In this document: positions 30,619-62,571 of the stretch, piece by piece
Layout: the number at the start of each line of letters is the position of its first letter
Numbering within the stretch: the first letter of the stretch is position 1
Origin: an uncultured Gammaproteobacteria bacterium
Lineage (GTDB): Bacteria; Pseudomonadota; Gammaproteobacteria; SZUA-229
Direction: 5' to 3'
Length of the DNA stretch: 64,000 bases
Assembly: GCA_963711255.1 (NCBI GenBank)
Contig: CAVQDO010000034.1
Span: forward strand, 10,553-74,552
Notes under the pieces: model-generated
Databases searched by the model: none
What the model was told of the DNA's origin: nothing
The model's input: the letters and a program-made list of their open reading frames with translations, nothing else
Program-made: the position numbers and the translations under genes

Positions 30619-31350
30619 TTTTATTTCCCGTTTGTATTTACGATTGGCGTTAATATTTTCTTTTGGTTGCTTACTTAGGCTTTGCGGTTCTCGCACCGCG
30701 GGCGAGTTACTCTTTTGTCAGCAGCAACAAAAGAGTAACCAGAAAAGTGCCGCCCCGACTTGTTTGCCCCGAGAAAAGCACTCGGGGTTCCTGACTTTGG
30801 GTGCATTGCCTACGAGCCGTGCTGATGCGCCGTCCGGGCGCAGCATCACTAAATCCGCCGTCCATGGCGGATTTGCTCTACCAATGCGCCCAAAGTCAGC
30901 AAACAAAAGGGGGGTAAACAAAGAAAAACAAGAAACGAAACAAAAGCTTCTCCAGCTATGGCGCTACGCGCCATGTTTTTTGCTGTGTTCTAGTTGGTGC
31001 TATTGACTCTGTTGTTGACTTTGACTTTTCCGCCTTCGATAGCTGAATTTGCCAACACGTAGAGCAAATCCGCCATGGACGGCGGATTTAGCCACGCTGC
31101 GCCCGGACGGCGCATCGGGGCGGCTCGGGCCAAAGTAAGCATACACACCTTAAGCAAACACCAACGCCAAAAGAACAGACACCCTCAAATTCAGGTTCCC
31201 CGGACGCTTCTCCGGGGCTATCGAGTTCGCGGCGGCCTTTTCTGGTTACTCTTTTGGGCTGTAGCAAAAGAGTAACTCGCCCGCGGTGCGAGAACCGCAA
31301 TGCCAAAGTATGCAAACCATAGAAAATATTGACGCCAATAGGAAATAAAA
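30619..31350. repeat. complex GC-rich nested inverted-repeat element, non-coding (arms 30619-30881 and 31059-31350; central spacer 30882-31058)
   Basis: The two arms are reverse complements, with perfect blocks of 34 bp (30684-30717 vs 31266-31299), 20 bp, 21 bp and 32 bp (30850-30881 vs 31059-31090). Each block is itself a local hairpin. Local GC is ~55-60% against ~42% for the window. All ORFs through this region are low-complexity and look spurious. Confidence 0.85.
30958..30982 (+). terminator. terminator-like hairpin ATGGCGC-TAC-GCGCCAT followed by GTTTTTT, inside the central spacer of the palindromic element
   Basis: 7-bp GC-rich perfect stem, 3-nt loop and T6 run, read from the sequence. 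A tandem TTGACT x3 (31003-31026) follows. Confidence 0.5.
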
Positions 31351-31449: not shown

Positions 31450-34335
31450 ATGTCTGAATTTATCCCCGGTCAGCGTTGCATCAGCGATGCTGAACTACAA
31501 ATGGGGCTGGGCACCATTTTAACGGTTGAAGCACGGACCTTAACTGTACTATTTATGGCGACCGGCGAAACCCGTACCTATGCAATACAAACAGCACCGC
31601 TCACACGAGTGCTTTTCTCCATCGGTGATACTGTAACCAGTCACGAAGGTGTCAGTGTTACGGTTAAAGAAGTAGCCGAGAATCATGGTCTTGTCACCTA
31701 CTCCGGCATTGATAGTAATGGCAAGGTGTATCAGCTTGAAGAAGCCGAACTTGATAACTTTATACAATTGAATCGGCCCTCCGAACGATTGTTCAATGGC
31801 CAGATTGATAAAGACAACTGGTTCGAACTGCGTTATCAAACGCTTTTGCATAAGAGTCGACTGGCTAAGTCGGATCTATACGGTTTAGTGGGCAGTCGCA
31901 CCAGTCTAATATCTCATCAGCTATATATCGCTCATGAAGTAGCCAATCGTTATGCTCCGCGTGTGTTACTGGCTGATGAAGTTGGCCTCGGAAAAACCAT
32001 AGAGGCCGGCCTGATTCTGCACCACCAGGTATTAACCGAACGTGCGAAGCGACTATTAATTGTTGTACCGGAAACCCTTATCCATCAGTGGCTGGTAGAA
32101 ATGCTGCGCCGCTTTAATCTTCATTTCAAAATTTTTGATAAGAACCGCTGTGATGACTTAATCCAGGAAAACGATTTTGATAATATTTTTCATTCTGAAC
32201 AGTTTGTTTTGTGCAGTATTGATTTCCTGGTAAGTAACTCAGCTGTTTTTGAACAGTGTGTGATGGGTGAATGGGATTTGATGGTGGTTGATGAGGCTCA
32301 CCATCTGCAGTGGTCAGCAGAAGAACCCAGCATCGAGTATATGGTGGTTGAGCAGTTAAGTTACCACACCAAGGGTGTTTTACTGCTGACAGCTACGCCC
32401 GAGCAGCTTGGCAAGGAAAGTCATTTTGCACGCTTACGATTACTTGACCCCAATCGTTTCCCTGATTACCAGCAGTTTATCGAGGAAGAAGAAAACTATG
32501 AGCCTTATGCTCAGCTTATAGAAGATTTACTGAGTGGCCAGGCGTTAAGCGATACGGATTTCGAGCTTATTCATGCCACGATTCAGGAAGGTGATAATTT
32601 AAGCTTGCTTAATCAAATGCAGGATAACGGCAGCCAGGATGAGGAGCAAATGCAGCATGCTCGTACCGAACTGGTTGAACACCTGCTTGATCGTCATGGC
32701 ACAGGCCGTGTTTTATTTCGAAATACCCGCTCTGCAGTTAAAGGCTTTCCAGAAAGAAAACTTGAAAGTTATGCCCTGCCAATGCCTGAAGCCTACACGC
32801 AATTACAGGCTGAACAGGCTATCCAGTTATTAACCCCCGAGGTTCTGTATCAACAACAGGGTCTTGCAGAGCACTGGACTAAAATTGACCCAAGAATAAA
32901 CTGGTTGAGCAAAAAATGTGCTGAACTTTATCCGCAAAAAATTCTGGTTATTGCTGCTAATGCTGATACAGCGCTGGAAATTACACAGTACTTTAAAACC
33001 CAGACTGGATTGCATGCTACAGCTTTTCATGAAGGACTGAGCATTGTTGAACGTGATCGCGCCGCTGCATTTTTTGCGGATTTTGAAACGGGAAGCCAGA
33101 TCCTGGTATGTTCGGAAATTGGCAGTGAAGGCCGAAACTTTCAGTTTGCTCACCACCTGGTTGTTTTCGATTTGCCGATTAACCCGGATCTGCTGGAACA
33201 GCGTATAGGCCGACTCGATCGTATCGGGCAAAAAAACAGCATCGTTATTCATGTGCCTTACCTGGAAAATTCTGCCCAGTCAGTCTGCTTCCAGTGGTAT
33301 AACGAGGCGCTTGAAGCTTTCGAGCATACCTGCCCGGCGGGACATTCTGTTTACAAACGGGTACAGCATGATCTCCACCAGGCGTTACTTGAAAGCCAGA
33401 ACAATGAACTCAATGAGACATTACTGCAGCAGTTAATTAAATCTTCCCGATCACACTATCTTGAAATGACCCAGTCTCTGCAAAATGGTCGTGACCGATT
33501 GCTGGAATATAACTCCTGCCGCCCGCGCATAGCGAATGATATTAAATTACGGGCCGAAGCCGAAGATGAGCATTCGCTACTGGCTGACTATATGGAAAAC
33601 GTTTATGACTGTTTTGGTATAGATAATGAGCTTCATAGTGATGGTTGTTTCATTATTCGTCCAACCGAGCACATGATTAATCATTTCCCCGGACTTTCAG
33701 AAGAAGGCATGACTATTACCTATGAGCGTAATATTGCACTTAGTTTTGAAGATGCGCACTATATTACATGGGAGCACCCGTTAACCAATAACGCTATTGA
33801 TATGGTGTTAAGCAATGAAAATGGCAATACCTCGGTTACTGCGGCAGATTACAGTAATGTCAAGGCTGGCAGTGTTTTACTGGAATGCCTGTTTTCGCTG
33901 GAAAGTGCACCGATAGAAGAGTTGCAAAGTAACCGGTATTTACCGCCAACCATGATTCGCGTGGTTTGTGATGAACGTGGTGCAGACCATAATAGCAAGC
34001 TTTCACACGAAGTAATTAACAGCACTCGTCAGTTTGTTGATAGCGGTGTTGGAAACAAAATTGTTAAGGCGAAAAAGAAAATTCTAAAAGCCATGCTTAA
34101 GCGCAGTGAAAAATATGCCGAGTTAAAGTCGGCAAAAATTCTGGCTCAGGCTCAGCACTCAGCAACAGAGACATTATCAATTGAAATTAATCGATTAAAT
34201 GCGCTTTCTAAAGTTAACCCGAATATCCGGGCCGACGAAATAAATTACTTTGAGAAACAGTTGTCGAAGTTAACCAGGGTCATTGATGCGGCTAACTTAC
34301 GGCTGGATGCGGTACGGGTTATTGTAGCAACCTGA
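31450..34335 (+). CDS. rapA: RNA polymerase-associated protein RapA (HepA), SNF2-family ATPase
   Basis: 961 aa with the RapA N-terminal domain and SNF2 helicase motifs (LLADEVGLGKTIEAG, DEAHHL, helicase C-terminal QRIGRLDRIGQ). Confidence 0.95.
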   Translation: MSEFIPGQRCISDAELQMGLGTILTVEARTLTVLFMATGETRTYAIQTAPLTRVLFSIGDTVTSHEGVSVTVKEVAENHGLVTYSGIDSNGKVYQLEEAELDNFIQLNRPSERLFNGQIDKDNWFELRYQTLLHKSRLAKSDLYGLVGSRTSLISHQLYIAHEVANRYAPRVLLADEVGLGKTIEAGLILHHQVLTERAKRLLIVVPETLIHQWLVEMLRRFNLHFKIFDKNRCDDLIQENDFDNIFHSEQFVLCSIDFLVSNSAVFEQCVMGEWDLMVVDEAHHLQWSAEEPSIEYMVVEQLSYHTKGVLLLTATPEQLGKESHFARLRLLDPNRFPDYQQFIEEEENYEPYAQLIEDLLSGQALSDTDFELIHATIQEGDNLSLLNQMQDNGSQDEEQMQHARTELVEHLLDRHGTGRVLFRNTRSAVKGFPERKLESYALPMPEAYTQLQAEQAIQLLTPEVLYQQQGLAEHWTKIDPRINWLSKKCAELYPQKILVIAANADTALEITQYFKTQTGLHATAFHEGLSIVERDRAAAFFADFETGSQILVCSEIGSEGRNFQFAHHLVVFDLPINPDLLEQRIGRLDRIGQKNSIVIHVPYLENSAQSVCFQWYNEALEAFEHTCPAGHSVYKRVQHDLHQALLESQNNELNETLLQQLIKSSRSHYLEMTQSLQNGRDRLLEYNSCRPRIANDIKLRAEAEDEHSLLADYMENVYDCFGIDNELHSDGCFIIRPTEHMINHFPGLSEEGMTITYERNIALSFEDAHYITWEHPLTNNAIDMVLSNENGNTSVTAADYSNVKAGSVLLECLFSLESAPIEELQSNRYLPPTMIRVVCDERGADHNSKLSHEVINSTRQFVDSGVGNKIVKAKKKILKAMLKRSEKYAELKSAKILAQAQHSATETLSIEINRLNALSKVNPNIRADEINYFEKQLSKLTRVIDAANLRLDAVRVIVAT

Positions 34336-46100: not shown

Positions 46101-46490
46101 ATGATCACATACTTATACTGGTTTTCAATTATCGCCCTGGCCTCCGGGCTGCTTTATTTCATCGGTTACAAAGTTGAAGAATGGAAAATTGCTGTTATTG
46201 CCGGCATCAGCGTCATGCTTATCGGTTTTATCGCCTACCATTTTCATTTTCAGCAGGTTTTCGTCAAGCGATACGGCGGCGTGATGACGATTAAAGTGCC
46301 TGCAGGTGAAAGACACCTTGCAGCAACCTGGAAAGACGATAATCTGTGGATTGAAAATTATGATCCAGCCACAAATACCTGCCATTTCAGGGAGTATTCC
46401 CGTGGTAACCTGTTACAGGGCCAGGTATCAATAAAAAACTGTAACCCATTGACTCGTGTACCAGCCACGATGCCAGTGGTTGCGCCCTGA
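46101..46490 (+). CDS. small membrane protein of unknown function (2 TM helices plus soluble C-terminal domain)
   Basis: Two N-terminal hydrophobic helices; no recognisable family. Confidence 0.45.
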   Translation: MITYLYWFSIIALASGLLYFIGYKVEEWKIAVIAGISVMLIGFIAYHFHFQQVFVKRYGGVMTIKVPAGERHLAATWKDDNLWIENYDPATNTCHFREYSRGNLLQGQVSIKNCNPLTRVPATMPVVAP

Positions 46491-46512
46491 TCAAACAGAG
46501 AGATATTATATA

Positions 46513-47442
46513 GTGAACCGTCTAAAAGCCTGTAAAGTCATTTCATCCAGCCTGCTAATACTGTTTAGTTTACTGGCAGCTACAAACAGTGCCCTGTCAG
46601 CCCAGGCGCAATATTCGTCAAAAGATTTTTCACACTGGCTGGATGCTGCACGCATTGCGAACGCAACCTATCAATCAGAAGATAACCTGAAAGAAACGCT
46701 CGCCAGCCAGGGTTATGAAGTCGAACTGATTCAACAAATTGAAGGTTACTCGGTGGGCTTCGTTCTGGCGACAAATCATACCAGCAAGCAACAGCTCATC
46801 GCCGTGCGTGGAACCTCCAATATCGAAAATGTTCTGGTCGATGCGGCTTTTGTACTGGTACCCGACAAGCTTTCAGGCATTGATATACACCAGGGATTCC
46901 TGTTATCAGCCAGGGATATTTATCAGGCTGTTTCCAGCAGCTTGAAACCCGGTTACCAGATCAGGACAATTGGTCACAGTCTGGGTGGAGCTGCTGCAGT
47001 CATACTGGCGATGATGCTGGATGCTCAGGGTTATGATATTACTGAAGTTATTACTTTTGGTCAGCCTAAAGTGACCAATATCAGTGGTAGTCGACAATTT
47101 AAGCATCTCAATGTAACGCGACTGGTAACATTGAAAGATATGGTGCCGCTGGTGCCGCCACTGGATCCGCTGGAACTGATGAACCTGAGTATATTCTGGC
47201 ACCAGGGTACGGAAATCATTTTATATGACAATCAGCAGTATTCGGTACTGCAAGGCACCGACAGCATGATGCGGGCCCGTGATTTCTTAAATGACATACC
47301 CGGTGAAAAACATGTTAATAGTCACTTTATGAGTACTTATATCAAAAATCTTGAAAATAAGCTGGATTTAGCCGAGCAGGTTAAATATAAAAGTGACTTC
47401 AAACTGACAGACTGGTTTGGAAATACAAAGAAGGCGCAATAA
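46513..47442 (+). CDS. secreted class-3 (fungal-type) lipase family protein
   Basis: GTG at 46513 after AGAGAG. Signal peptide (LLILFSLLAATNSALSA). GHSLGGAAA nucleophile-elbow motif in a lipase_3-like context (...VRGTSNIENVLVDA...). Confidence 0.75.
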   Translation: MNRLKACKVISSSLLILFSLLAATNSALSAQAQYSSKDFSHWLDAARIANATYQSEDNLKETLASQGYEVELIQQIEGYSVGFVLATNHTSKQQLIAVRGTSNIENVLVDAAFVLVPDKLSGIDIHQGFLLSARDIYQAVSSSLKPGYQIRTIGHSLGGAAAVILAMMLDAQGYDITEVITFGQPKVTNISGSRQFKHLNVTRLVTLKDMVPLVPPLDPLELMNLSIFWHQGTEIILYDNQQYSVLQGTDSMMRARDFLNDIPGEKHVNSHFMSTYIKNLENKLDLAEQVKYKSDFKLTDWFGNTKKAQ

Positions 47443-47570
47443 TTAGTTTTTAATATTACCTTTCTAAAAAAATGCTGGCACTCACAGGTTTACCGGAATA
47501 ACATATGGCAGGTGCAGCGGTAATGTTTTTAGCCTGCACACTGGTAAAAATTAAACCTTGGAGTAAATGT

Positions 47571-48434
47571 ATGAGAGTTAAATATTTCACCTCCGCTGCA
47601 GCAGCGGTTGCGTTCGGTACATGCGCAATGGTGGCACAGGCGAATAATGGCAATATGAATCCTGACGGTAACTGGATGCCAAAGCAGCCAGAAAATCGTT
47701 ACTGGCAGGCACCAGACTGGTCTAATTATAATGTTTCACCCGGCAACAGACAGTCACGACAAACCCATACTCCACAGTCCGGGCCTGGGTATAACAATGC
47801 ATATCGCCCTGCTCCACCCGCTATGCAGCAGCCGCCAATGCAACGGTCTCAAGGACAGAGGCCACCCATGCAACAGTCTCAAGGACAAAGGCCACCCATG
47901 AAACAGTCACAAGGACAAAGGCCACCAATGCAACAGTCTCAAGGACAAAGGCCACCAATGCAACGGTCTCAAGGACAAAGGCCACCAATGCAAAGGCCAG
48001 CGCAGGCACCTGGCGCAGAGCGTCGTCCAGAGTTTAATCGTCCTGATTCGGCTGCAATGGCACCACCAGCAGCGAACATCAATCGTATGCCACCACCGCC
48101 TATGGGACCATACAACAGCGGCATGAGGGGCCCTGATAATGGCGCTTCTGCTTTTAATGTGCCTGGTTATAACCGTTACAGAAATAATCGCCGGGATAAC
48201 AATAAATTCTGGGGACGCAGCGGCCCGAGCAAGTGGATGAACCCGAATAAAATGAACATGGAACGGGGCTGGGACGATATGATTAATGCACCAAGTCGGA
48301 TGGGCGAAATGCCCGGCGGCTGGACAGCACCTGAAGTCAGCGTGCCTAATCCAGTGGATATGGGTGATCAGATTCAGGAAAACCTTGAAGACCTGCCAGA
48401 GCAGGTACGCGATATGGATGTTGGCGATAACTAG
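47571..48434 (+). CDS. secreted Pro/Gln-rich repeat protein ((P)PMQ(Q/R)SQGQRP decapeptide repeats)
   Basis: ATG at 47571 with GGAG 9 nt upstream. Signal peptide (AAAVAFGTCAMVAQA). About seven tandem copies of a 10-aa unit, then Pro/Gly/Asn/Met-rich low-complexity sequence and an acidic C-terminus. Confidence 0.65.
   Translation: MRVKYFTSAAAAVAFGTCAMVAQANNGNMNPDGNWMPKQPENRYWQAPDWSNYNVSPGNRQSRQTHTPQSGPGYNNAYRPAPPAMQQPPMQRSQGQRPPMQQSQGQRPPMKQSQGQRPPMQQSQGQRPPMQRSQGQRPPMQRPAQAPGAERRPEFNRPDSAAMAPPAANINRMPPPPMGPYNSGMRGPDNGASAFNVPGYNRYRNNRRDNNKFWGRSGPSKWMNPNKMNMERGWDDMINAPSRMGEMPGGWTAPEVSVPNPVDMGDQIQENLEDLPEQVRDMDVGDN
47841..47990 (+). repeat. five near-identical in-frame 30-bp tandem repeats (CAACRGTCTCAAGGACARAGGCCACCMATG)
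   Basis: Counted directly; copies differ at 1-3 positions (R/Q/K codon). Confidence 0.9.
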
Positions 48435-48500: not shown

Positions 48501-49274
48501 TTAAAGTGCTTTAAGCCATAAGGTAATCTTATGACAAACCCACTCCTCATCATCCAGTGGAATGTCGTGACCGGCAGTGTCATGTATTTCAATGGGTAAT
48601 TGCCAGTGCTCGGCGAGTGTCAATGAGCATTCCGGGCTAACCATCTGGTCAGCCATACTGGTGAGTAGCAGCATTGGAGTGACTGGCCGCTGCTCCGGAA
48701 CATTAAATCGCATCGCCGCAATGAGTTGCCTCAAACCATTACTGGCAGACACCGGATACTGCCTGGCATAACTTACCCATGCTTCTATGATATCAGTGCT
48801 TTTACTATTATCACTGGCGGTAGTATTAGATACCATTGACAAAATTCTACTTTCATTATGGTAAATGTTTTTTGCCAGCATTAATGATTTGAGAATTACA
48901 GGGTAATTCGCCGGCAGCAGCCGTTGATAGAATGGGTTCAGGCCACGCAAACTGGTGCTGATTAATACAGAACCGGCGCATTCATCAGGATAGCGTTTCA
49001 TCCATTCAATAGCGACCATGGCACCTAGTGATAAGGCAAGAATAAATACCGGTTTCTCTATTGATTGTTGTTCTATTGATAGTCTAATGTCCTCTACCAT
49101 TTCACGAATGCTGATCGCGCTTTTTTCTTTATAGCGATGACCGTTACCGGCAAAATCATGCAGGTATAATTTATCGTCAGGCAGGTGTGATTGCAGAATC
49201 GTTGCAAAATTTCCCCAGTGCCTTTGTTCACGCATTAAACCACGCAACAATATCCAGGTCCGTTGCTTCGGCAT
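48501..49274 (-). CDS. alpha/beta-hydrolase fold esterase
   Basis: 257 aa; HG oxyanion region (LLRGL) and a GxSxG-like nucleophile elbow (ALSLGAMVA). Confidence 0.7.
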   Translation of the reverse strand: MPKQRTWILLRGLMREQRHWGNFATILQSHLPDDKLYLHDFAGNGHRYKEKSAISIREMVEDIRLSIEQQSIEKPVFILALSLGAMVAIEWMKRYPDECAGSVLISTSLRGLNPFYQRLLPANYPVILKSLMLAKNIYHNESRILSMVSNTTASDNSKSTDIIEAWVSYARQYPVSASNGLRQLIAAMRFNVPEQRPVTPMLLLTSMADQMVSPECSLTLAEHWQLPIEIHDTAGHDIPLDDEEWVCHKITLWLKAL

Positions 49275-49628: not shown

Positions 49629-51695
49629 ATGGCTAAATATACTCTAACGAATTCATTTTTGGTAAAAGCACAGGTAGAACCTTTATTCAAGGCTACCCTA
49701 CCTGGCGGTCTGGGCAATATCTTTTCAGCCTGCCTGATCTTAATGTTTCTTTATGGCAGTTCACAGCAATATCATGCTGTCATACTCTCAGCAGTCATTT
49801 CTTTATTGTCTTTATTACGAATCCTTGTATCAAGTCACTATCTTAATAAATGCACATACAGCATAAATAGTTATATATATGCGCATGTGCTGTTTACCTT
49901 TTTAATCGGCCTTTGCTGGGCCGGTTACGCCTATATGCAGTTGCATTCCGAAAGCGAGTCCTTAAGAAGCCTGGTAATCCTGGTTAATTTCGGTTTGATC
50001 GCTGCAAGTATTGCAACGCTCTCAACCTGGATGCCGGCCTATCTTGCCTACATGATTCCGCAGTCACTGGCGATCTTTTATGTATTTTTGAATATTGATA
50101 CCGGCTACAACATGCAGATGGGTGTTGCTTTGCTCATTTTTGTCGGCATCATGATAACAACCAGTATTCGCTTTAATAAGCGATTCAAGACAGAAATACA
50201 GCTTACTTATAATAACAAACAGTTAATTAATGATTTAAACAGTGAAATTGGTATACGCGAAGAGGTACAACTTGAGCTTGAGCACGGCAAAATGGAGCTG
50301 GAAAACAAGGTAGAAGAAAGAACCAAGGAACTGGTTGATATTAATTTAAGCCTTGAAAGTGTTATCGATAAAAAGGAAAAAGCCGAGCAGAGCCTGCAGT
50401 ACCTCGCCTATCATGATGAGCTAACAGGGCTTCCCAATAAAAGCCTGCTGGTCGACCGTATCAATCAGTCGATAAAAACATCTTCACGAGATGACCAGAA
50501 GATGGCGATACTGTTTCTCGATCTTGACCGATTTAAAACAATCAATGACAGCCTCGGGCATACTATTGGTGATGATTTATTAAAAGAAGTTTCGGCGAGG
50601 CTGCATAAGACCTTGCGTAATCACGATACTATTTCAAGAAATGGTGGTGATGAGTTTGTTGTTGTCCTGGAAAGACTGAAAAATACAGACGAAGCCATTC
50701 ACGTAGCCAAGAAAGTTATAAATTGCCTGACAGATACCTTCCACATACACTCACACCGAATTCACATTGGCGCCAGTATCGGCATCAGTATTTATCCATC
50801 AGATGGCGATACTCCCCTGATATTGTTACGTAATGCGGATACTGCGATGTATCGTGCCAAACAGGCTGGCGGAAACCAGTTGCAGTTCTACGACAAGAGT
50901 ATGTCGAATCAGCTGCACGATCGGCTGGTGCTGGAAAATGAATTACATACCGCGCTTGCGAATAATGAATTTTATATGGTTTATCAGCCGCAGGTAAATT
51001 GCAAAACTGGACTAACTACCGGTTTTGAATCCTTAATGCGCTGGAATAATAAAAATTATGGCGAGATTGGTCCGGACCGGTTTATACCACTGCTGGAAGA
51101 AACAGGACTGATTTATGACGTAGGACAGTGGATTGTTAACGAAGTTATTAATTTCATAGCAGCACAAGAGATTCATGATATCGGTTTTTCGATAAACCTG
51201 TCTGCATTGCAATGCAATAATTTTGACTTTATTGATTTTGTTAAAGGTGAAATTCGCAGGGCTGGTATTAATGCCTCGCAACTGGAATTTGAAATTACTG
51301 AATCGTTGTTAATTAAAGATTTCGAAAAAACAAAACTATTCCTTGATGAGTTGCATTCAATTGGCTGTTCGATTGCACTCGATGATTTTGGTACCGGTTA
51401 TACCTCAATGAGCTACCTGGCACGTTTACCTATCGATGTAATTAAAATCGATAAGTCCCTGGTACGTAATATCCATAATAACGAGAGCCTTCGCAGTATT
51501 GTTAAAGCCATTATTACCATGAGCAGCAGCCTGGGTAAAACCAATGTATTTGAAGGCATCGAAACCAATGCGGAACTCGCCGAAATCAAGAAACTGAATG
51601 GTACGATTATACAGGGCTACCTGTTTAGCAAACCGTTAAAAACTGTTGACATTGATGGCTGGCTTCACGCTGTTTGTGATATTAAGCAGGCCTAA
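49629..51695 (+). CDS. membrane-anchored diguanylate cyclase/phosphodiesterase (GGDEF-EAL) with N-terminal polytopic sensor domain
   Basis: N-terminal ~6 TM helices, a coiled coil, a GGDEF domain (RNGGDEF) and an EAL domain (QPQVNCKTG...EFEITES...DDFGTGY). Confidence 0.9.
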   Translation: MAKYTLTNSFLVKAQVEPLFKATLPGGLGNIFSACLILMFLYGSSQQYHAVILSAVISLLSLLRILVSSHYLNKCTYSINSYIYAHVLFTFLIGLCWAGYAYMQLHSESESLRSLVILVNFGLIAASIATLSTWMPAYLAYMIPQSLAIFYVFLNIDTGYNMQMGVALLIFVGIMITTSIRFNKRFKTEIQLTYNNKQLINDLNSEIGIREEVQLELEHGKMELENKVEERTKELVDINLSLESVIDKKEKAEQSLQYLAYHDELTGLPNKSLLVDRINQSIKTSSRDDQKMAILFLDLDRFKTINDSLGHTIGDDLLKEVSARLHKTLRNHDTISRNGGDEFVVVLERLKNTDEAIHVAKKVINCLTDTFHIHSHRIHIGASIGISIYPSDGDTPLILLRNADTAMYRAKQAGGNQLQFYDKSMSNQLHDRLVLENELHTALANNEFYMVYQPQVNCKTGLTTGFESLMRWNNKNYGEIGPDRFIPLLEETGLIYDVGQWIVNEVINFIAAQEIHDIGFSINLSALQCNNFDFIDFVKGEIRRAGINASQLEFEITESLLIKDFEKTKLFLDELHSIGCSIALDDFGTGYTSMSYLARLPIDVIKIDKSLVRNIHNNESLRSIVKAIITMSSSLGKTNVFEGIETNAELAEIKKLNGTIIQGYLFSKPLKTVDIDGWLHAVCDIKQA

Positions 51696-52750
51696 ACCTT
51701 CTCGTATAGGAACTGTCCGTTGCCATAGCTGTTGCCCTTGTTTGGGCTGAACATGGTTTTGCACAACACAAAATATTTGTTCCAGTGGTCAACCTCTTCA
51801 ATCGACAAATATTCAGGATAAAGTTGATCTATCGCTAGCCAGAATCGTTTGTGCCACTCATCAAGCGTTTTCCAGTAGTTTCTGCCATTCATAAACCAGC
51901 TGTCTACATATTTCAAATGTGTATCATGCCTTTGCGGTTCTTTGAATGGCCAGATGTGAGCACCCGGATAATAAACGCCCATATGCGTGTCTTCCGAATT
52001 TAAAAAGGCGGGGATGGTGTCAAATGAGACGATACAGTGGTGCAGGCATTTGCCGCCGGGTTTTAACAGTTGTGAAATGTTCTTTTGCAATGACGCTATG
52101 TTGGTTACATGCTCGAGTAAACCGATAGAAATGACCCGGTCAAAATAATTGCTCTCGATATCCAGTTCACTAGCATCATCAAAATAGGTTTGTATCAAGC
52201 GAAAGCGTGAACTGTCAATATCACTGTTATTAATGATTTTATTACGAATGTGGCTGGTTTGAACATCACTGGGGTTAATGCCAATAATGTTTACCTTTGG
52301 GAATGTCTCGAGTAAATATTTAGATAATCCGCCAAAGCCACAGCCTAAATCAAGGATGTTTTGCCCGTCCCTGATATCAGCACGTTCTATCAATAACTTG
52401 TATTTATTTTGTTGCGCCTGTTCCAGTGATATATCCTGGATCTTATCAGTATCGTTATTTATGCCATAAAACCCCATGGTATACGCCATGTAGTCTTTAT
52501 CAAGAAAAGCGAGGTAGGCCTGGTACTCTTCATTGTAATGGCTGAGAGAAGCATCCGCGATTGTTTTTTTAGCAATGTTTCCTTCGAAAGAATTAACTCC
52601 GTGTGATTCTGGCAGGTCATTATTGCCCTGCCAGCGTTTATATTCACGTTCGAAGTAACGCTCCATCTGTTGTTCAAATTTAGTTGTTTCGGCTGAGCCG
52701 TAACAGTAGATCCCATTGTCTTTGAGCTGGTTTATTATATTAGTAGGCAT
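51692..52750 (-). CDS. cyclopropane-fatty-acyl-phospholipid synthase-like SAM-dependent methyltransferase
   Basis: Class I SAM-binding motif ILDLGCGFGGLSKYL in a CFA-synthase/mycolic-acid-MT-like context. Confidence 0.75.
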   Translation of the reverse strand: MPTNIINQLKDNGIYCYGSAETTKFEQQMERYFEREYKRWQGNNDLPESHGVNSFEGNIAKKTIADASLSHYNEEYQAYLAFLDKDYMAYTMGFYGINNDTDKIQDISLEQAQQNKYKLLIERADIRDGQNILDLGCGFGGLSKYLLETFPKVNIIGINPSDVQTSHIRNKIINNSDIDSSRFRLIQTYFDDASELDIESNYFDRVISIGLLEHVTNIASLQKNISQLLKPGGKCLHHCIVSFDTIPAFLNSEDTHMGVYYPGAHIWPFKEPQRHDTHLKYVDSWFMNGRNYWKTLDEWHKRFWLAIDQLYPEYLSIEEVDHWNKYFVLCKTMFSPNKGNSYGNGQFLYEKV

Positions 52751-52752
52751 GC

Positions 52753-53967
52753 TTAATTATATTTCTTCAGGGCAATTACAGCGTTTAAACCGCCAAATGC
52801 GAATGAGTTACTCAGGGCAACATTGATGTCTTTTTTGCGGGCCGTATTAGGCACGTAATCCAGCGTACAGTCTTCAGCAGCTTCCGTGAAATTGACCGTT
52901 GGCGGAAGTATACCGTGGTAAATAGCCAGTACACTGGCGGCAACTTCCAGTGCACTTGAGGCGCCAAGGGCGTGTCCGTGAATTGATTTTGTTGAAGAAA
53001 CCGCCAGTTTATCTGCATGCTGTTTAAACACCCTTCTGATGGCCTCGGTTTCAGTGCTGTCATTTGCCATAGTTGCGGTGCCGTGTGCATTGATATAGTC
53101 AACATCTTCGGGTTGTAAACCGGCTTGTATCAGTGCAGTGCTGATTGCTTTGCATATGCCGTCAATATCTGGTCGGGTTATATGACCCGCATCAGAAGAC
53201 ATGCCGCTGCCGGCAAGTTCAGCATATATACGTGCATTTCGGGCTTTGGCGTGGCTTTCTGATTCCAGTACCAGCATCGCAGCGCCCTCACCTAAAACAA
53301 GCCCGCTGCGGTCTTTACAGAAAGGGCGACAGGTGTCATTCGATGCGACTCTGAGTGCTTCCCATGACTTTAACAGGCCATAGGTGAAGGGTGCGTCAGT
53401 AGCACCAACCAGTGCTACTTCAACCAGGCCTGCCTGAATCATCGCCATGCCCTGGATAATGGCATGTGAGCCCGAAGCGCAGGCGCTGGAAATCATAAAT
53501 GAAGGACCTTTAATACCAGAATGAGAGCAGACCATACTGGCGGCAGCACTCGGCATACCTTTTGGAATGGTTAGCGGATGCGCACGGGTGCGTTGATTTT
53601 TATACAACTGCTGATAGGTATCTTCATCGGTGTGTTTACCGCCGCAGCCACTGCCGATAATGGCGGCTGCATTTTTCAGGTGTTTATCACCCTTTTCCAT
53701 GCCGGCATCAGTTATTGCCTGACTGGCTGCGATTACGGCATATTGTGAGAATAGATCCAGTGTCGTCAGTTCATCAGCAGTAAAATAATCTTCAGGCTGG
53801 TAACCGTTCAGTATTGATGCTCGTGCAATTTTTGTTTCTGCATTGGGCAGTGAAAAATCATTTATCGCGCTGCGTCCACTCTTCAATGCATCCCAGAATG
53901 AATCGGTAGTTAAACCCGGACCTGAAACTACGCCTAGCCCGGTAATCATGACACGATTTTTTTGCAT
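52753..53967 (-). CDS. beta-ketoacyl-ACP synthase (KAS I/II-like)
   Basis: 404 aa thiolase fold; active-site Cys (SSACASGSHAI) and His motifs (HGTAT, HGHALGASSA). Confidence 0.9.
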   Translation of the reverse strand: MQKNRVMITGLGVVSGPGLTTDSFWDALKSGRSAINDFSLPNAETKIARASILNGYQPEDYFTADELTTLDLFSQYAVIAASQAITDAGMEKGDKHLKNAAAIIGSGCGGKHTDEDTYQQLYKNQRTRAHPLTIPKGMPSAAASMVCSHSGIKGPSFMISSACASGSHAIIQGMAMIQAGLVEVALVGATDAPFTYGLLKSWEALRVASNDTCRPFCKDRSGLVLGEGAAMLVLESESHAKARNARIYAELAGSGMSSDAGHITRPDIDGICKAISTALIQAGLQPEDVDYINAHGTATMANDSTETEAIRRVFKQHADKLAVSSTKSIHGHALGASSALEVAASVLAIYHGILPPTVNFTEAAEDCTLDYVPNTARKKDINVALSNSFAFGGLNAVIALKKYN

Positions 53968-53986
53968 GAATAATATTCAGGAAATG

Positions 53987-54214
53987 CTAGCCGCGCATTT
54001 CTTCTACCTTTATTAGAATATCATTCACAGTGACAATGGATGGGATGAGTTCGTTTGGGATTTCGATATCGAATGCCTCTTCGAGCTCAAACAGAACGGT
54101 GATGGCTTTTAGTGAATCAATACCTAAATTAATAAGTTCTGCTTCGGGTTTAACATCTTCGATGTTGCAATGACCAACATCAGCGATAATTTTTCTAACT
54201 GTATCTAATGGCAT
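53987..54214 (-). CDS. acyl carrier protein
   Basis: 75 aa; phosphopantetheine attachment site LGIDSLKAITVL. Confidence 0.85.
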   Translation of the reverse strand: MPLDTVRKIIADVGHCNIEDVKPEAELINLGIDSLKAITVLFELEEAFDIEIPNELIPSIVTVNDILIKVEEMRG

Positions 54215-54489
54215 AAATAGACCTTGTGCTGCTCAATTTCGGAAAGTGCCAGGTAGTTGAATATTTACAAAACTCAAACTTGGAAACACACCTCAGGTCC
54301 ATCTACGGCTGCTTGTATAGTACAAATATAGGCCTCTTACGTCTATATTTTTTTATAATTTAATTATTATATTTCAGCAAGATTCGTTTACTTTTTAATA
54401 CAAAATTTAACTTGCTGTCTATACTCTAGGTTGTATGATAGGTATATCAATCAAGTCAGTCGAATAACAATAATAATAAGGCAATACTA

Positions 54490-55557
54490 ATGAAGATTGA
54501 GCAAGAACAAAATGCCGTCCGTCGTACAGAAAGAAAAAAACTGCTTCATGGCTTTACCCAGTTCGGTACACGTTATGATTCCGAAACCAGTACTATCTGG
54601 TGCTGGATGCAACCCCGCCCCCGCCCCTGTATCAACCTGACTTTAATTGAGGAGTTAATACAGCTTCAGCAGCAACTGACTACCACCTATAAAAATCAGG
54701 ACCCCGACACCACCTGGCCTTTTCGCCACCTGATACTGGCATCAAAAATAAACGGGATATATAACCTGGGCGGTGATCTATCGTTGTTTAAGCAATGCAT
54801 CGAAAATAAAGATGAAGAGAAGCTGAGAGATTACGCCTACAAATGCGTCAGCCTGGTACATCGTAATGTCAATAATCTTGATTTGCCCATTACCATGGTT
54901 TCACTGGTTCAGGGGCAGGCACTGGGAGGCGGCTTTGAAACAGCGCTATCCTGTGATGTCATCATTGCAGAGCGCAGATCCCAGCTCGGTTTCCCTGAAA
55001 TACTGTTTAATCTATTCCCCGGTATGGGCGCTTATAACCTGCTGGCGCGAAGAATAGGCTCTGCACTGGCTGAGCGAATAATATTAAGTGGTAAGACCTA
55101 CAGCGCCGAAGAGCTTTATGAAATGGGTGTTATTGATGTGCTGGCAGAGAATGGCAAAGGTGTTCAGGCGACAGAAACATATCTGAAAAGCCATAACCAG
55201 TCGCACAATACCATTCGTTCAATGAAACGTATTCGTCAGATTGTGCATCCGGTAACACGTCAGAATCTTTTTGATATTGTCGATATCTGGGTAGAAGCAG
55301 CAATGGATCTGAGTAAAAAAGATCTGGCTAAACTCGAACGCCTGTTGCATCTGCAGATAACACAGAAAGACAGCCAGGTTATTCAGCAGCAGGATATGAC
55401 CTTGACGAAGCGTCGCGGGGACTGGCGAAAAGTGACAGAAGTAAGTTTCCCGCTTAAAACACATTTAGGTGAAGATGTTTTGCATAACAGAAGAAAAGCC
55501 GACTGCCGCAGACAAACCCGGGAAGAAAGCCGAAACAGGATAGAAACCACAAAGTAG
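54490..55557 (+). CDS. crotonase-fold (enoyl-CoA hydratase/isomerase family) protein with C-terminal extension
   Basis: Oxyanion-hole region ALGGGFETALSCDVIIAE and a GGDLS motif; ~100 aa extra basic C-terminus. Confidence 0.7.
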   Translation: MKIEQEQNAVRRTERKKLLHGFTQFGTRYDSETSTIWCWMQPRPRPCINLTLIEELIQLQQQLTTTYKNQDPDTTWPFRHLILASKINGIYNLGGDLSLFKQCIENKDEEKLRDYAYKCVSLVHRNVNNLDLPITMVSLVQGQALGGGFETALSCDVIIAERRSQLGFPEILFNLFPGMGAYNLLARRIGSALAERIILSGKTYSAEELYEMGVIDVLAENGKGVQATETYLKSHNQSHNTIRSMKRIRQIVHPVTRQNLFDIVDIWVEAAMDLSKKDLAKLERLLHLQITQKDSQVIQQQDMTLTKRRGDWRKVTEVSFPLKTHLGEDVLHNRRKADCRRQTREESRNRIETTK

Positions 55558-55598
55558 TAATTCTCCACTATTATCTATAGTAAGGCCATTGTATAGGT

Positions 55599-56351
55599 GT
55601 GTACTTGCTTAAATCTATTTCTAACCTGATTGTACTGCCACTTGTCTGGCTGCTTCTTATTGTCCTGAGTATTGTGCTTTATTTGTTATCGCTTTTACCG
55701 CGCACATTTTCCGTTAGTTATTACCATTCCCTGTCTCGTTTCTGGTGCAGGGTATTTGTTCGCGCGCTGGATACAGATTTGAAGCTGGTCCATAAAAATA
55801 CCAGGCCATTACCCGAACATTATATCCTCGTTGCCAACCACCCTTCTGCGTTTGAAGACTTTGCTATACCCGCGCTATTTGATATCTATCCATTAGCAAA
55901 AACGGGGGTACGTGACTGGCTGTTACTGGGACGAATTAGTGATTACGCGGGCACCATTTACGTAGAACGTAAAAATGCAGAATCGAGACATAGCGCTCTG
56001 CAGTCATTAATCGAGACGGTTCAAAATGGTAAAAATATTGTTATCTTTCCTGAAGGTGGCTGCCACGGGCGAAGAATTTACCATACGTTTCATACCGGTG
56101 CCTTTGACATTTCGCTGCAATCGGGTATTCCGGTGGTGCCAGTATTTCTTCACTATATTGATCAGGATGCCTTCGAGTGGAAGAATGAAAGCCTGCCGCT
56201 CAAGCTATGGCAAATATTTAAAACCAGTAATAAGCTCGTTAACTATTATGTTTACGATGCTTATTTGCCATCTGATTTTGATGATAAGGAAAGTTTTGCA
56301 AAGCATGTGCATGAGCAATACCTGCTCTGGCAGCAAGAGTATCTTGATTAA
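55599..56351 (+). CDS. lysophospholipid (1-acylglycerol-3-phosphate) acyltransferase family protein
   Basis: GTG start. N-terminal TM helix, an HX4D motif (NHPSAFEDF) and an FPEGG motif. Confidence 0.8.
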   Translation: MYLLKSISNLIVLPLVWLLLIVLSIVLYLLSLLPRTFSVSYYHSLSRFWCRVFVRALDTDLKLVHKNTRPLPEHYILVANHPSAFEDFAIPALFDIYPLAKTGVRDWLLLGRISDYAGTIYVERKNAESRHSALQSLIETVQNGKNIVIFPEGGCHGRRIYHTFHTGAFDISLQSGIPVVPVFLHYIDQDAFEWKNESLPLKLWQIFKTSNKLVNYYVYDAYLPSDFDDKESFAKHVHEQYLLWQQEYLD

Positions 56352-56356
56352 TTTTT

Positions 56357-57241
56357 CTACTGGTTCAGGTCTTTTTTGGATTGCAGGCTGCTGCCTGGCA
56401 GCTGGTAGTATTTAAATACAGTGGATGTTTTATTATAAGAGTGTCGCCGGAAGAAATCGGTTAGATTGATGCCAATACCCAGAAACAGGTTGCGTTCTTT
56501 TGCCGCATTCGGATCGGCAAATCCGCGGGTATAATAGCCGGCGTGTAATTCTATATGTTTTAAAAAACTGTCTCTCGCAAATTCAAAACCATTGAATTTT
56601 AGAGCCAGTAAATATTTCGAATTTTCATAATCGGTGGAGAAATCAGAAGAGCCTGAATCGGGAAAATATTCCCAGCGAAAATCGAGTTTATTTGACAGCT
56701 CAGGATTTATATAAGAAAAATAAGCAAAGGTGATACCCGCAATATTAGCGACCATGTCCTCTTTCGAAAAACCAAATTCGCTGAAGGAATCACCTATCTC
56801 CATGTAACCAACAATAGCCAGGCTGGATAAAGCACCGTAAATTGCAGCGTCACGTTTATTAATGCACCAGTACTCGTACAGGCTGGATAAGCCGTGAGCG
56901 GTAACATAACTGGTATATGCATGGCCCAGTTTGTCAGCGCCGCCCGATTTGGTGTCATTATTAAACCAGCCCTCAGAGCTGGCCGTTGGTGAGGTCGTAA
57001 AATAGTCCCACTTGGCAACACCCCATACAGTAATAATAGCTATACCGCTAAGATTTACAGTTAGGATTTTGCTGTTTTTCTGAGACCGGGAAAGTTCTTC
57101 AGTGCAGCCGTCATCCAGTGCAAACCATGCTGTATTACTTGCGCTAAACGGCTGACCATCCGTAGTAGCGTAAGCCGAATTGAATAGTTGCATAGACAAC
57201 AGAATGAGCAGCAGTAATTTTTTTACAGTGATGACTTTCAT
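56357..57241 (-). CDS. secreted protein of unknown function (possibly DUF2279-like)
   Basis: Signal peptide (MKVITVKKLLLLILLSMQLFNSAYA), a GADKLGHAYTSY motif and Ser/Tyr/Phe-rich sequence. The family assignment is weak. Confidence 0.4.
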   Translation of the reverse strand: MKVITVKKLLLLILLSMQLFNSAYATTDGQPFSASNTAWFALDDGCTEELSRSQKNSKILTVNLSGIAIITVWGVAKWDYFTTSPTASSEGWFNNDTKSGGADKLGHAYTSYVTAHGLSSLYEYWCINKRDAAIYGALSSLAIVGYMEIGDSFSEFGFSKEDMVANIAGITFAYFSYINPELSNKLDFRWEYFPDSGSSDFSTDYENSKYLLALKFNGFEFARDSFLKHIELHAGYYTRGFADPNAAKERNLFLGIGINLTDFFRRHSYNKTSTVFKYYQLPGSSLQSKKDLNQ

Positions 57242-57777
57242 ATTAAAGAATATTGACTCGCCCATCTCAGAAAGTTACCCTAGAATGACCTGACTTGAAT
57301 TGCTATATATCAAATACGGATGCTGCTAACGCTGCAAAGTGTCTGTTCGTTATTCTACAACCAGTATATTTCTGAGTTTCACTCTATTTTAATTAGCCGT
57401 TACATAACTGAATACTTTTTTAAGCTGCGTCTGTAACCAGGTGTGCTATATTAGGTTTTAATTATATTTAAATCAGTGCTTTAGCTGAAACGATCATTGT
57501 CAGAGATTTTCGTTAACAAGAGAAAAAGATGAACAACTGCAGATTAGAATGATACTGCTGCGCTGTTAACTTCATCGTTCCTAATTAATAATGCTATATG
57601 TTGCTGTATTTATAGTATATAATTCGCACCTCAATTTCGGGTGCACTTCGGTCTGTACCCTTGTAGTAGCAGTAATTAATAGTAATTACATACGCACATT
57701 CTTGTTTCCGCCTGGACCGACTCATTGTTAGATTATTGAGCGGGCTGTTATAGACACTAGTGCTGGAGAACATTTTA

Positions 57778-61392: not shown

Positions 61393-62571
61393 TCAGGGGA
61401 CTTTTTTGACTGGGTCATGCTCTGTCTGTAACTGGCCACGCGCATATTTCAAAAACGATTCCAGCGGGTCAATTAATTTTTCAATATATTTTCTCGGTAC
61501 TTTCTCGAACTCGCCCTGAATAATCGCGGTCATATAACGATTGAATAATGCCGTATCCAGTTTATCAAAATCAGCCGCTAACTCCTGACCCAGGGTCTCT
61601 TCTTTCCTGTCAGCTATTTCGGCTTTTTTATTCTCTTCCCTGTTGATGGTTTCATCATGACGAACAATCTGGCAGGCGCGCCGCAGTAGTGACTCTTGCA
61701 GAGCAATATCAGCCTGCATGGTCAAACCGGTAAAGGTTACGGATTCGTTATAACCTTCCGTTGAGTTCAGGCCGGCAGCCAGTTTTATACGAATCGTATC
61801 GTTACTGATTTTAAACGCCAGGTTTGAGACCGTCTTTTGAAAACGTATGCCGACTATGTGGGCCCTGAATGCTTTGGTCATTGGCATAACCAGGATGAAC
61901 TTTCCTGAGCCCAGGTGCCCAAGAACTTCTTCTTTACGCAGAGACTCTTTTAAATTATCTGATACCGATGTAATTATCTGCGAGGTGATTTTTTTGCCAT
62001 GTGTTTCGGTAATAGTATCAATATCGGCAATCTGCATGCTTAAAATAGAAAGTTCGAATTTGTGCCGATGAGCACCGGAGATAGCTTTATCTCCCATATC
62101 CTGAATGCCGCGTTCATTAAACAGTTCAGTAAGACTGTCACGCGTAACATTATCCTGAAGCGAGGTGATTTTATTGCTCAGTTTAGAGTATGAGCTGGTA
62201 CGGCTGATAATATCTGTCGCAGAAAATGGTTTACTGATGAAGTCTGTGGCGCCCATGTTGAATGAGGCCTGTTTCGCCGCGTCAGTGTCCTCGTGACCGG
62301 TAATCATTATTACCGGTAAACTGGCGATGTGCTCATCATCAGATTCCCTTATCTGTTTCAGCAACAGCATACCGTTCATTACAGGCATATGCAGGTCGGC
62401 AAAGACCAGGCTTATTGAACTGTCTTCCTGAATTCTGTCCCAGGCAACATCACCATTTTCTGCATGCGAAATAAAAAAGGAATCATCAAGATGTTTTGCG
62501 ATTACACTGCGAATAGTCGCTGAGTCATCAACGATCAAAACATGAACTTTTTCATTTTTTGGCATATACAA
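61393..62571 (-). CDS. response regulator with CheY-like receiver and a degenerate GGDEF-like output domain
   Basis: Receiver domain (VLIVDDSATIRSV..., phospho-acceptor D in VFADLHMPVMNG). The C-terminal domain aligns to GGDEF but carries GSGKF in place of GGDEF/GGEEF. Confidence 0.75.
   Translation of the reverse strand: MYMPKNEKVHVLIVDDSATIRSVIAKHLDDSFFISHAENGDVAWDRIQEDSSISLVFADLHMPVMNGMLLLKQIRESDDEHIASLPVIMITGHEDTDAAKQASFNMGATDFISKPFSATDIISRTSSYSKLSNKITSLQDNVTRDSLTELFNERGIQDMGDKAISGAHRHKFELSILSMQIADIDTITETHGKKITSQIITSVSDNLKESLRKEEVLGHLGSGKFILVMPMTKAFRAHIVGIRFQKTVSNLAFKISNDTIRIKLAAGLNSTEGYNESVTFTGLTMQADIALQESLLRRACQIVRHDETINREENKKAEIADRKEETLGQELAADFDKLDTALFNRYMTAIIQGEFEKVPRKYIEKLIDPLESFLKYARGQLQTEHDPVKKVP

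Follow-up and report, generated by a model that had tools for sequence, protein, structure and literature searches.

Diffusible signal factor (DSF) synthases of the RpfF type take a 3-hydroxyacyl-acyl carrier protein (ACP) as substrate, which is dehydrated to the cis-2-enoyl-ACP followed by hydrolysis of the thioester, and they are partnered either by RpfC and RpfG or by the PAS-GGDEF-EAL receptor RpfR (PMC4504480). The locus described here lies in a 64,000-nucleotide stretch (the window) of contig CAVQDO010000034.1 from an uncultured gammaproteobacterium (assembly GCA_963711255.1). It was found to contain an RpfF-like crotonase gene (ECH), followed downstream by an acyltransferase gene (AT), and divergent from ECH a trio of genes for an ACP, a ketoacyl-ACP synthase (KAS) and an S-adenosylmethionine (SAM) methyltransferase (MT), on which a GGDEF-EAL gene converges (Table 1). 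The locus is probably a DSF-family module for cell-cell signalling that is coupled to cyclic di-GMP (c-di-GMP) and in which ACP, KAS and the SAM methyltransferase form a private precursor line. The arrangement is a variant of known DSF systems, and no rpfF cluster with ACP, KAS or methyltransferase was found to be described in the literature searched, an absence which is no proof of novelty; the same literature contained nothing relevant on DSF in Desulfobulbaceae, Thiotrichaceae or Desulfopila.

The window was found to share with the RpfF-RpfR systems of Burkholderia and Cronobacter, which use the Burkholderia signal BDSF, an RpfF-type synthase (E about 3e-50 to 5fus and 6dgn) encoded beside a GGDEF-EAL protein with a convergent signalling gene; the coupling of signal to c-di-GMP turnover known there (PMC4504480) would be a further likeness, and the Desulfopila form of the cassette also has a PAS-GGDEF-EAL partner. 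The window differs in the six-helix membrane domain that takes the place of PAS in its GGDEF-EAL protein, in the conserved Arg-rich C-terminal extension of the synthase and in its private ACP, KAS and CMAS-type MT, whereas the known systems tap the 3-hydroxyacyl-ACP of general type II fatty-acid synthesis (FAS-II). To the rpfF-rpfC-rpfG system of Xanthomonas it is linked by a synthase match of E=2e-52 to 3m6m, and in a set of related loci (L136-L162) the synthase adjoins an RpfC-like hybrid kinase and a REC-HD-GYP regulator. The methyl branch of Xanthomonas DSF is reported to come from branched-chain primers via FabH, without a SAM-dependent enzyme (PMC5011732). The linked accessory gene there is rpfB, encoding an acyl-CoA ligase, whereas here it is the trio, with AT in some loci. 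Precedents for single parts of the arrangement exist: FabG2 of Xanthomonas campestris pv. campestris (Xcc) is a dedicated fatty-acid enzyme feeding DSF synthesis (PMC5941067), although it is a reductase and not linked to rpfF, and AmxMT1 of anammox bacteria belongs to a non-core FAS-II cluster and, as a SAM methyltransferase, works on a chain tethered to ACP (PMC9821293), although it is a C-methyltransferase of the polyketide synthase type, without bicarbonate site and from an unrelated pathway.

The crotonase was predicted to be an RpfF-type signal synthase of the DSF family. An earlier interpretation made from the letters of the DNA (the sequence-only reading) had described a crotonase with a C-terminal extension, of which the fold and the extension were confirmed, whereas the generic crotonase identity was replaced by that of a signal synthase. 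The protein was found to match the NCBIfam model NF006452 with 367 bits (cut-off 177), followed by the RpfF DSF synthase model NF053515 with 233.5 bits. The four best matches in the PDB were 7zq7, 3m6m, 5fus and 6dgn (3e-53 to 4e-50), which comprise RpfF of Xanthomonas, Burkholderia and Cronobacter and one entry deposited only as crotonase family protein, and ordinary enoyl-CoA hydratases were found to start at 3e-15; by these E-values about 35 orders of magnitude separate the RpfF matches from the next solved crotonases. The residues E150 and E170 align with the catalytic Glu141 and Glu161 of Xcc RpfF, and L145/G146/G147, G94-95, M179 and W267 align with L136/G137/G138, G85, M170 and W258, which line the substrate pocket of Xcc RpfF (PMC9864630). 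Both catalytic Glu residues and the pocket residues were found to be invariant in 23 homologues, and many homologues carry the name 'DSF synthase' in the database of the Joint Genome Institute (JGI). Relatives at 40-49% identity (75 genomes) mostly adjoin a convergent RpfC-like hybrid histidine kinase in the classical rpfF/rpfC layout. The window protein is a separate branch of the RpfF family and not an orthologue of xanthomonad RpfF.

In a metagenome scan anchored on MT, in which loci with the required flank on both sides were counted as assessable, KAS was found to adjoin MT wherever 1.3 kb or more was available on each flank (28 of 28 loci), and where each flank reached 6.5 kb or more, KAS, ACP and an RpfF-like gene were present without exception (10 of 10 loci). 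The MT subfamily was found to be tiny (22 clusters at 50% identity, at E<=1e-30, among 1.84 billion protein representatives), scores beyond it drop steeply to generic CMAS levels, and in the assessable loci it occurred only beside rpfF-like genes. The trio is a dedicated companion of DSF-type synthases, and this is the main reason why the cluster is read as signal biosynthesis and not as lipid biosynthesis. It might instead be held that an ordinary DSF or BDSF system is present and that the trio serves turnover, self-protection or an unrelated role, such as methyl-esterification of the acid to an inactive or volatile form of the 3-hydroxypalmitic acid methyl ester (3-OH-PAME) type. Such a role would suit the CMAS family, which includes O- and N-methyltransferases, as well as the replaced Cys of the cyclopropane-synthase site in MT, and methyl-ester signals of Ralstonia are cited in PMC11298618. 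The turnover or esterification of a free acid, however, needs neither KAS nor ACP, and in none of the 28 assessable loci were MT, KAS and ACP separated, the distances between them being often only 2-30 nt. This inseparability and tight spacing therefore argue for chemistry on an ACP-bound intermediate, and an ordinary system with an unconnected trio appears improbable.

The cluster was found to be conserved as a unit, as the sequence-only reading had required of it, both among relatives and where the genomic surroundings are unrelated. The nearest genomes (Thiotrichaceae and unclassified gammaproteobacterial metagenome-assembled genomes, with synthases 58-79% identical to that of the window) contain the forward GGDEF-EAL gene followed by reverse MT, KAS and ACP and forward ECH, and this order was kept even where the flanking genes differ; the synthase with 79% identity belongs to the metagenome-assembled genome NORP24, which shares flanking genes with the window. 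Because flanking genes differ between loci, the genes are considered to travel as a cassette. The cultured Desulfopila inferna (Desulfobacterota; assembly GCA_016919005.1; L082-L084) contains a single operon ACP-KAS-MT-ECH-PAS-GGDEF-EAL with a receptor of the RpfR-like type. In a neighbour-joining tree the trio-linked synthases were found to fall in two separate clades, and the Desulfopila inferna synthase, 72% identical to that of the window, nests in the gammaproteobacterial clade, a sign that the entire cassette may have moved horizontally from one phylum to another. A third set of loci (L136-L162) contains the trio with a REC-HD-GYP regulator, a HisKA-HATPase-REC-Hpt hybrid kinase and an RpfF-like gene of 299-334 aa, with identities to the window of about 40% for MT and 55-66% for KAS, and it is an RpfG/RpfC/RpfF-like set. 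In all trio loci the KAS was 55-72% identical to the window KAS. Trio and synthase were found with three receptor architectures, namely the six-transmembrane-helix GGDEF-EAL protein (window and about 25 loci), the PAS-GGDEF-EAL protein of Desulfopila and, as sister architecture, the RpfC-like kinase with the REC-HD-GYP regulator, each of which links them to a DSF-type sensing system.

The description of MT as a methyltransferase like cyclopropane fatty acid (CFA) synthase held at the level of the CMAS family and failed at the level of the Cfa equivalog (100 bits, cut-off 400). MT was found to lie far below every equivalog cut-off and to be 26% identical to E. coli Cfa. The residues C139, E239, H266, I268 and Y317, which are taken here to form the bicarbonate/catalytic site of Cfa, were confirmed by identity in the E. 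coli sequence and map to M92, E213, H238, I240 and Y292 of MT. The latter four were found to be invariant in the subfamily, and four of the five site residues are kept. MT shares with Cfa, CmaA1 and MmaA the Pfam family and the catalytic Glu with the His, Ile and Tyr of the bicarbonate site, whereas it differs from them in the replaced Cys of that site, in a conserved N-terminal region of its own of about 60 aa and in forming a tiny subfamily linked to rpfF. The CMAS enzymes of mycolic-acid synthesis are thought to work on ACP-bound chains. In the cyclopropane-synthase mechanism the olefin is methylated, followed by deprotonation aided by bicarbonate and a Glu residue (PMC9821293), and the MT site would allow a cis double bond of an ACP-bound chain to be methylated or cyclopropanated. 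MT is accordingly named here as a predicted tailoring enzyme for an ACP-bound acyl chain, with a putative regiochemistry.

The KAS was found to be FabF-like and of KAS II type, in agreement with the KAS I/II-like enzyme proposed from sequence, and to contain the Cys-His-His triad in the motifs ACASG, HGTAT and HGHALG (read from the translation). It scored 417 bits against the FabF equivalog TIGR03150 (cut-off 493.75; 494 when rounded) and was 38% identical to E. coli FabF. The dedicated ACP was likewise upheld by its PP-binding domain and a DSL serine motif; it scored 41.6 bits against the AcpP equivalog TIGR00517 (cut-off 70.45) and was 40% identical to E. coli AcpP over 60 aa. Because both lie below the equivalog cut-offs, KAS and ACP are predicted not to be core FAS-II components, and the proposal of an accessory, non-core acyl-chain toolkit was retained. 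That they could be the core fabF and acpP of the organism is hardly credible: no other fab genes occur within the window, which would leave room for it, but the same absence of fabH, fabD and fabG from the 64-kb window means that KAS and ACP stand outside a fabHDG-acpP-fabF context and are not flanked by these genes, and the pair was found as a movable cassette across contexts and phyla, only beside rpfF-like genes.

Gene content was also found to speak on the aryl-polyene-type product that had been suggested for the cluster, or on a polyketide-like secondary metabolite in general. A ketosynthase (KS), an ACP, a methyltransferase and an acyltransferase of the lysophospholipid acyltransferase (LPLAT) type occur in aryl-polyene clusters too, and this shared content favours the suggestion. 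The features sought were paired KS, two ACPs, ketoreductases, dehydratases, a starter ligase or lyase and export genes. Only one KS and one ACP were present, however, and ketoreductase, dehydratase, aryl starter ligase, glycosyltransferase and export genes do not adjoin the trio in the window or in related loci. The polyketide KS model PRK07103 gave 258 bits (cut-off 445), and an HMG-CoA-synthase cassette that could account for the crotonase was absent. A product of this kind is therefore given next to no weight. The aryl-polyene, polyketide beta-branching and core FAS-II readings were all rejected on gene content and curated score cut-offs.

The assignment of AT to the PlsC family was confirmed (PF01553, 73 bits, cut-off 23). 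Its translation contains the blocks NHPSAFED, YAGTIYVER, FPEGG and IPVVPV, of which block I is H-x4-E-D in comparison with the canonical H-x4-D. The protein has an N-terminal membrane helix and gave weak OlsA-like matches (58 bits). AT was found directly downstream of ECH in nine loci (L001, L004, L032, L088, L094, L101, L107, L126 and L161), of which L161 contains it even though the order of MT and KAS is rearranged there. It was absent in L002, L003, L005, L082 and all RpfC-type loci. AT is an accessory member in a part of the lineage only, and the central place given to it in the earlier lipid idea was lost, AT being the least conserved member of the unit.

The lipid idea in its strongest form is a private pathway for an unusual membrane fatty acid, in which the crotonase, FabM-like or only a dehydratase/isomerase, would introduce a cis double bond while the chain is carried by the private ACP; after elongation by KAS, the chain would be cyclopropanated or methylated by the CMAS enzyme and built into a lipid by AT, the neighbouring c-di-GMP gene being regulatory or incidental. 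This pathway gains from the chemistry of the lipid-acting CMAS enzymes, all of which have cis double bonds as their target, from the catalytic Glu, His and Tyr kept in MT, from the co-transcription of AT with the crotonase in the window and eight other loci, and from the RpfF equivalog cut-off that the crotonase misses. However, most trio loci have no AT, among them that of Desulfopila and every RpfC-type locus, the crotonase stands by the same 35 orders of magnitude nearer to RpfF, and the co-occurrence of the trio with RpfC/RpfG- and RpfR-like genes in independent lineages is left unexplained. A membrane-lipid pathway is thus judged unlikely, and the purpose in specialised membrane lipids proposed from sequence was given up, with the crotonase being of RpfF type and the trio being tied to RpfC/RpfG- or RpfR-type receptors elsewhere, ties which favour a diffusible fatty-acid signal over a structural lipid.

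The GGDEF-EAL protein was found to contain about six N-terminal hydrophobic helices and a coiled-coil linker (from the translation), followed by the GGDEF and EAL domains (by Pfam). The GGDEF domain contains an intact GGDEF motif with an RxxD I-site five residues upstream, and the EAL domain contains the variant ESL and a DDFGTG motif. The tandem was most similar to the tandem structures of MucR and MorA. The N-terminal 220 aa gave no significant Pfam match (MASE5 E=0.17), and a search with the membrane domain retrieved 11 truncated orthologues and no other domain architecture. In related loci, 25 full-length orthologues were found to adjoin MT. From this conserved adjacency and by analogy with RpfR, the protein is a candidate receptor or effector that would couple the signal to c-di-GMP turnover. 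It is not a member of RpfR, as GGDEF and EAL are present and PAS is replaced by the six-helix membrane domain, though it may be like RpfR in action. A second c-di-GMP gene, which encodes a REC-GGDEF response regulator, was observed at 61393-62571 (-), 5 kb downstream of the cluster.

The RpfF core of the crotonase comprises approximately residues 20-295 and was found to be followed by a strongly conserved extension of about 50-60 aa. Its Arg-rich part (about residues 305-345, nt 55402-55524) contains the pattern R-x-G-D/E-W-R-K ... F-P-L-x-T-H-L-G-E ... N-R-R-x4-R-R. A second RpfF-like clade, without trio, is distinguished by a related tail, R-T-K-Q-D-R-R ... F-P-L ... D-R-R-x4-D-R-R, and the tail was missing from most synthases of loci with RpfC-like kinase, with the exception of L008. 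The extension gave no match in a Pfam search, and an AlphaFold2 model of the synthase was unusable (mean pLDDT 45.8, from a shallow alignment). A PilZ or BldD-type c-di-GMP motif was sought in the extension and set aside, since only a short R-x-G-D resemblance, too weak to claim, was present. That the extension is a regulatory tail, possibly c-di-GMP-binding, is a hypothesis only.

The region between ACP and ECH had been called a shared AT-rich divergent promoter. Its length and AT-richness (the window has about 44% G+C) were confirmed, whereas the promoter scan gave no support: a sigma-70 consensus scan of the cluster yielded 12 promoter-like sites against 15 expected in shuffled sequence, which is not above chance, and two minus-strand promoter-like hexamer pairs (54463-54435 and 54450-54423) fall within this same overall result. 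Because the scan was no better than shuffled sequence, the notion of a shared promoter region is drawn from the geometry and a conserved motif. An alignment of 26 orthologous ACP/ECH intergenic regions was found to contain conserved blocks. The element ATAGTAC-N17-GTCTA occurs once in the window (0.07 expected), and its 29-nt span is identical in 13 related loci, where by coordinates it lies in or next to the ACP/ECH intergenic region; elsewhere among 166 loci only one more match was found (L010), with different spacing. It is a candidate binding site for a regulator.

A mechanism can be proposed for the module. The private ACP would be phosphopantetheinylated and malonylated by housekeeping enzymes, the cluster being without FabD and AcpS. 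KAS would then condense an acyl thioester from general fatty-acid synthesis with malonyl-ACP to give a 3-oxoacyl chain on the private ACP, followed by reduction to the 3-hydroxyacyl-ACP by housekeeping FabG, as the cluster contains no reductase. MT would add a SAM-derived carbon to the ACP-bound chain, most likely at an isolated cis double bond to give a methyl branch or a cyclopropane, as other lipid CMAS enzymes do. By homology to RpfF and Bcam0581, the crotonase would dehydrate the chain to the cis-2-enoyl-ACP, hydrolyse the thioester and free the signal, which would be a modified cis-2-enoic acid. The six-transmembrane-helix GGDEF-EAL protein may sense the signal directly or indirectly, by which the level of c-di-GMP would change, as suggested by the RpfR analogy and the conserved adjacency. 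RpfF is known for promiscuous thioesterase activity, from which the private ACP would also protect the acyl-ACPs of the general pool. In the Thiotrichaceae-like lineage the downstream AT may, speculatively, salvage or store acyl chains with a purpose like that of RpfB.

Several points weigh against this signalling module. All steps of the mechanism are inferred. The crotonase does not reach the equivalog cut-off of NF053515 (550 bits), and its activity could have diverged. In the MT subfamily the Cys of the Cfa bicarbonate site was found to be replaced by Met or Thr, and the nearest solved relatives of MT are plant N-methyltransferases as much as CFA synthases (8e-18 to 2e-16). Because the plant enzymes score similarly among the solved neighbours, O-methylation, or C-methylation at the alpha carbon next to a keto group, may be the chemistry instead. 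The co-transcribed AT is no less suited to a lipid end-product than to a diffusible one. Pfam detected no PAS domain, which binds BDSF in RpfR, in the window GGDEF-EAL protein, and its membrane domain shows no homology to the input domain of the RpfC-like kinase (BLASTP E=4.2, hhalign probability 2.4%), so that adjacency is what the receptor role is drawn from. The trio loci L005, L117, L132 and L091 contain no adjacent receptor gene, and many of the metagenome loci are near-duplicates, by which the linkage counts overstate independence.

The five genes of the divergent cluster were all recovered in the list of open reading frames (ORFs) at the coordinates given earlier, to the base, and Pfam and NCBIfam back every domain call (E 1e-11 to 1e-125). 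The spacing was found to be 2 nt between MT and KAS, 19 nt between KAS and ACP and 41 nt between ECH and AT. Two features had been absent from the sequence-only reading, namely the RpfF identity of the crotonase and the convergent GGDEF-EAL gene, whose stop codon overlaps that of MT by 4 nt. The functional unit is larger than five genes, and the GGDEF-EAL gene is part of it.

Table 1. Features of the locus in window coordinates; values given with domain models are E-values.
Feature	Position	Strand	Remarks
MT, SAM methyltransferase	51692-52750	-	352 aa; CMAS PF02353 6e-30
KAS, FabF-like condensing enzyme	52753-53967	-	404 aa; ketoacyl-synt N 5e-41, C 2e-35; FabF model 6e-125
ACP	53987-54214	-	75 aa; PP-binding 1e-11
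RpfF-type crotonase (ECH), predicted	54490-55557	+	355 aa; ECH_1 4e-25
PlsC/LPLAT acyltransferase (AT)	55599-56351	+	250 aa, GTG start; PF01553 2e-20
Membrane-bound GGDEF-EAL protein	49629-51695	+	688 aa; Pfam GGDEF 2e-47, EAL 1e-69
Divergent control region	54215-54489	no strand	275 bp, 31% G+C; conserved non-coding blocks
Operator-like element ATAGTAC-N17-GTCTA	54317-54345	+	29-nt span, imperfect dyad symmetry
DUF2279 predicted periplasmic lipoprotein	56357-57265	-	PF10043 4e-33; convergent with AT

The neighbours of the cluster in the window were found to be the GGDEF-EAL protein, a hydrolase, a helicase and an ABC-F protein. The DUF2279 gene adjoins AT only in the window and L001 and is absent at that place in L004 and L088, and its membership of the unit is doubtful. 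A terminator-like hairpin was observed at 56386-56403 (+), 35 nt past the AT stop; this places it within the 3' end of DUF2279, which is convergent with AT. The gene next upstream of GGDEF-EAL encodes an alpha/beta-hydrolase (Hydrolase_4; 48501-49274, -), is present at the same place in L110 and could be a candidate esterase for signal or lipids. The gene at 47505-48434 (+) encodes a 309-aa protein with near-identical P/Q-rich repeats (QRSQGQRPPMQ-like) and a weak Extensin-like Pfam match, and together with a class-3 lipase gene (46456-47442) it was found to be conserved beside the GGDEF-EAL gene in the Thiotrichaceae-like loci L004, L088, L098 and L131. Directly downstream of the RpfF-like gene, other trio loci, in which AT and GGDEF-EAL are both missing, were found to contain a conserved gene for a protein of about 121 aa (MPVIIFKLKNVPDDEADDIRE...; L117:6602-6967, L132:6403-6771 and L005:11087-11455). 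Directly beside MT in L091 (L091:6362-10784) lie genes for proteins of 1036 aa and 435 aa, which by size and membrane-rich N-termini resemble an efflux pump of the resistance-nodulation-division (RND) type and its adaptor and could be a candidate exporter of the product. Two TwoAYGGAY RNA motifs (Rfam RF01731; gathering score 43) were found at 30785-30905 (-) and 31035-31162 (+) with 60.6 and 53.8 bits, respectively; they are divergent and are flanked by the ORFs 29879-30616 and 31450-34335.

General fatty-acid synthesis, through its primers and intermediates, is the source of structural variety in the known DSF family. Where a synthase is always accompanied by an ACP, a condensing enzyme and a SAM methyltransferase of its own, an insulated and tailored precursor pool is implied, and such a private toolkit probably implies a new, SAM-modified signal structure. 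Taken in all its parts, the proposal is of an unrecognised branch of DSF quorum sensing, in which private ACP/KAS assembly and a SAM-derived carbon would yield a new class of cis-2-enoic signals and the Arg-rich tail with its R-x-G-D motif may provide c-di-GMP feedback on signal synthesis; this combined proposal is offered tentatively, as somewhat more apt to fail in one of its parts than to hold as a whole. The holders of the branch may be Thiotrichaceae-like Gammaproteobacteria, Desulfopila (Desulfobacterota) and unclassified metagenome lineages. Genome-mining rules would class such loci as 'fatty acid / lipid' clusters, by which a signalling role would be overlooked. The cassette is not confined to uncultured bacteria, being present also in the cultured Desulfopila inferna; it occurs with both known types of DSF receptor and the type of the window, and it offers a testable entry point to fatty-acid signalling and c-di-GMP control beyond the plant and human pathogens in which DSF has been studied.

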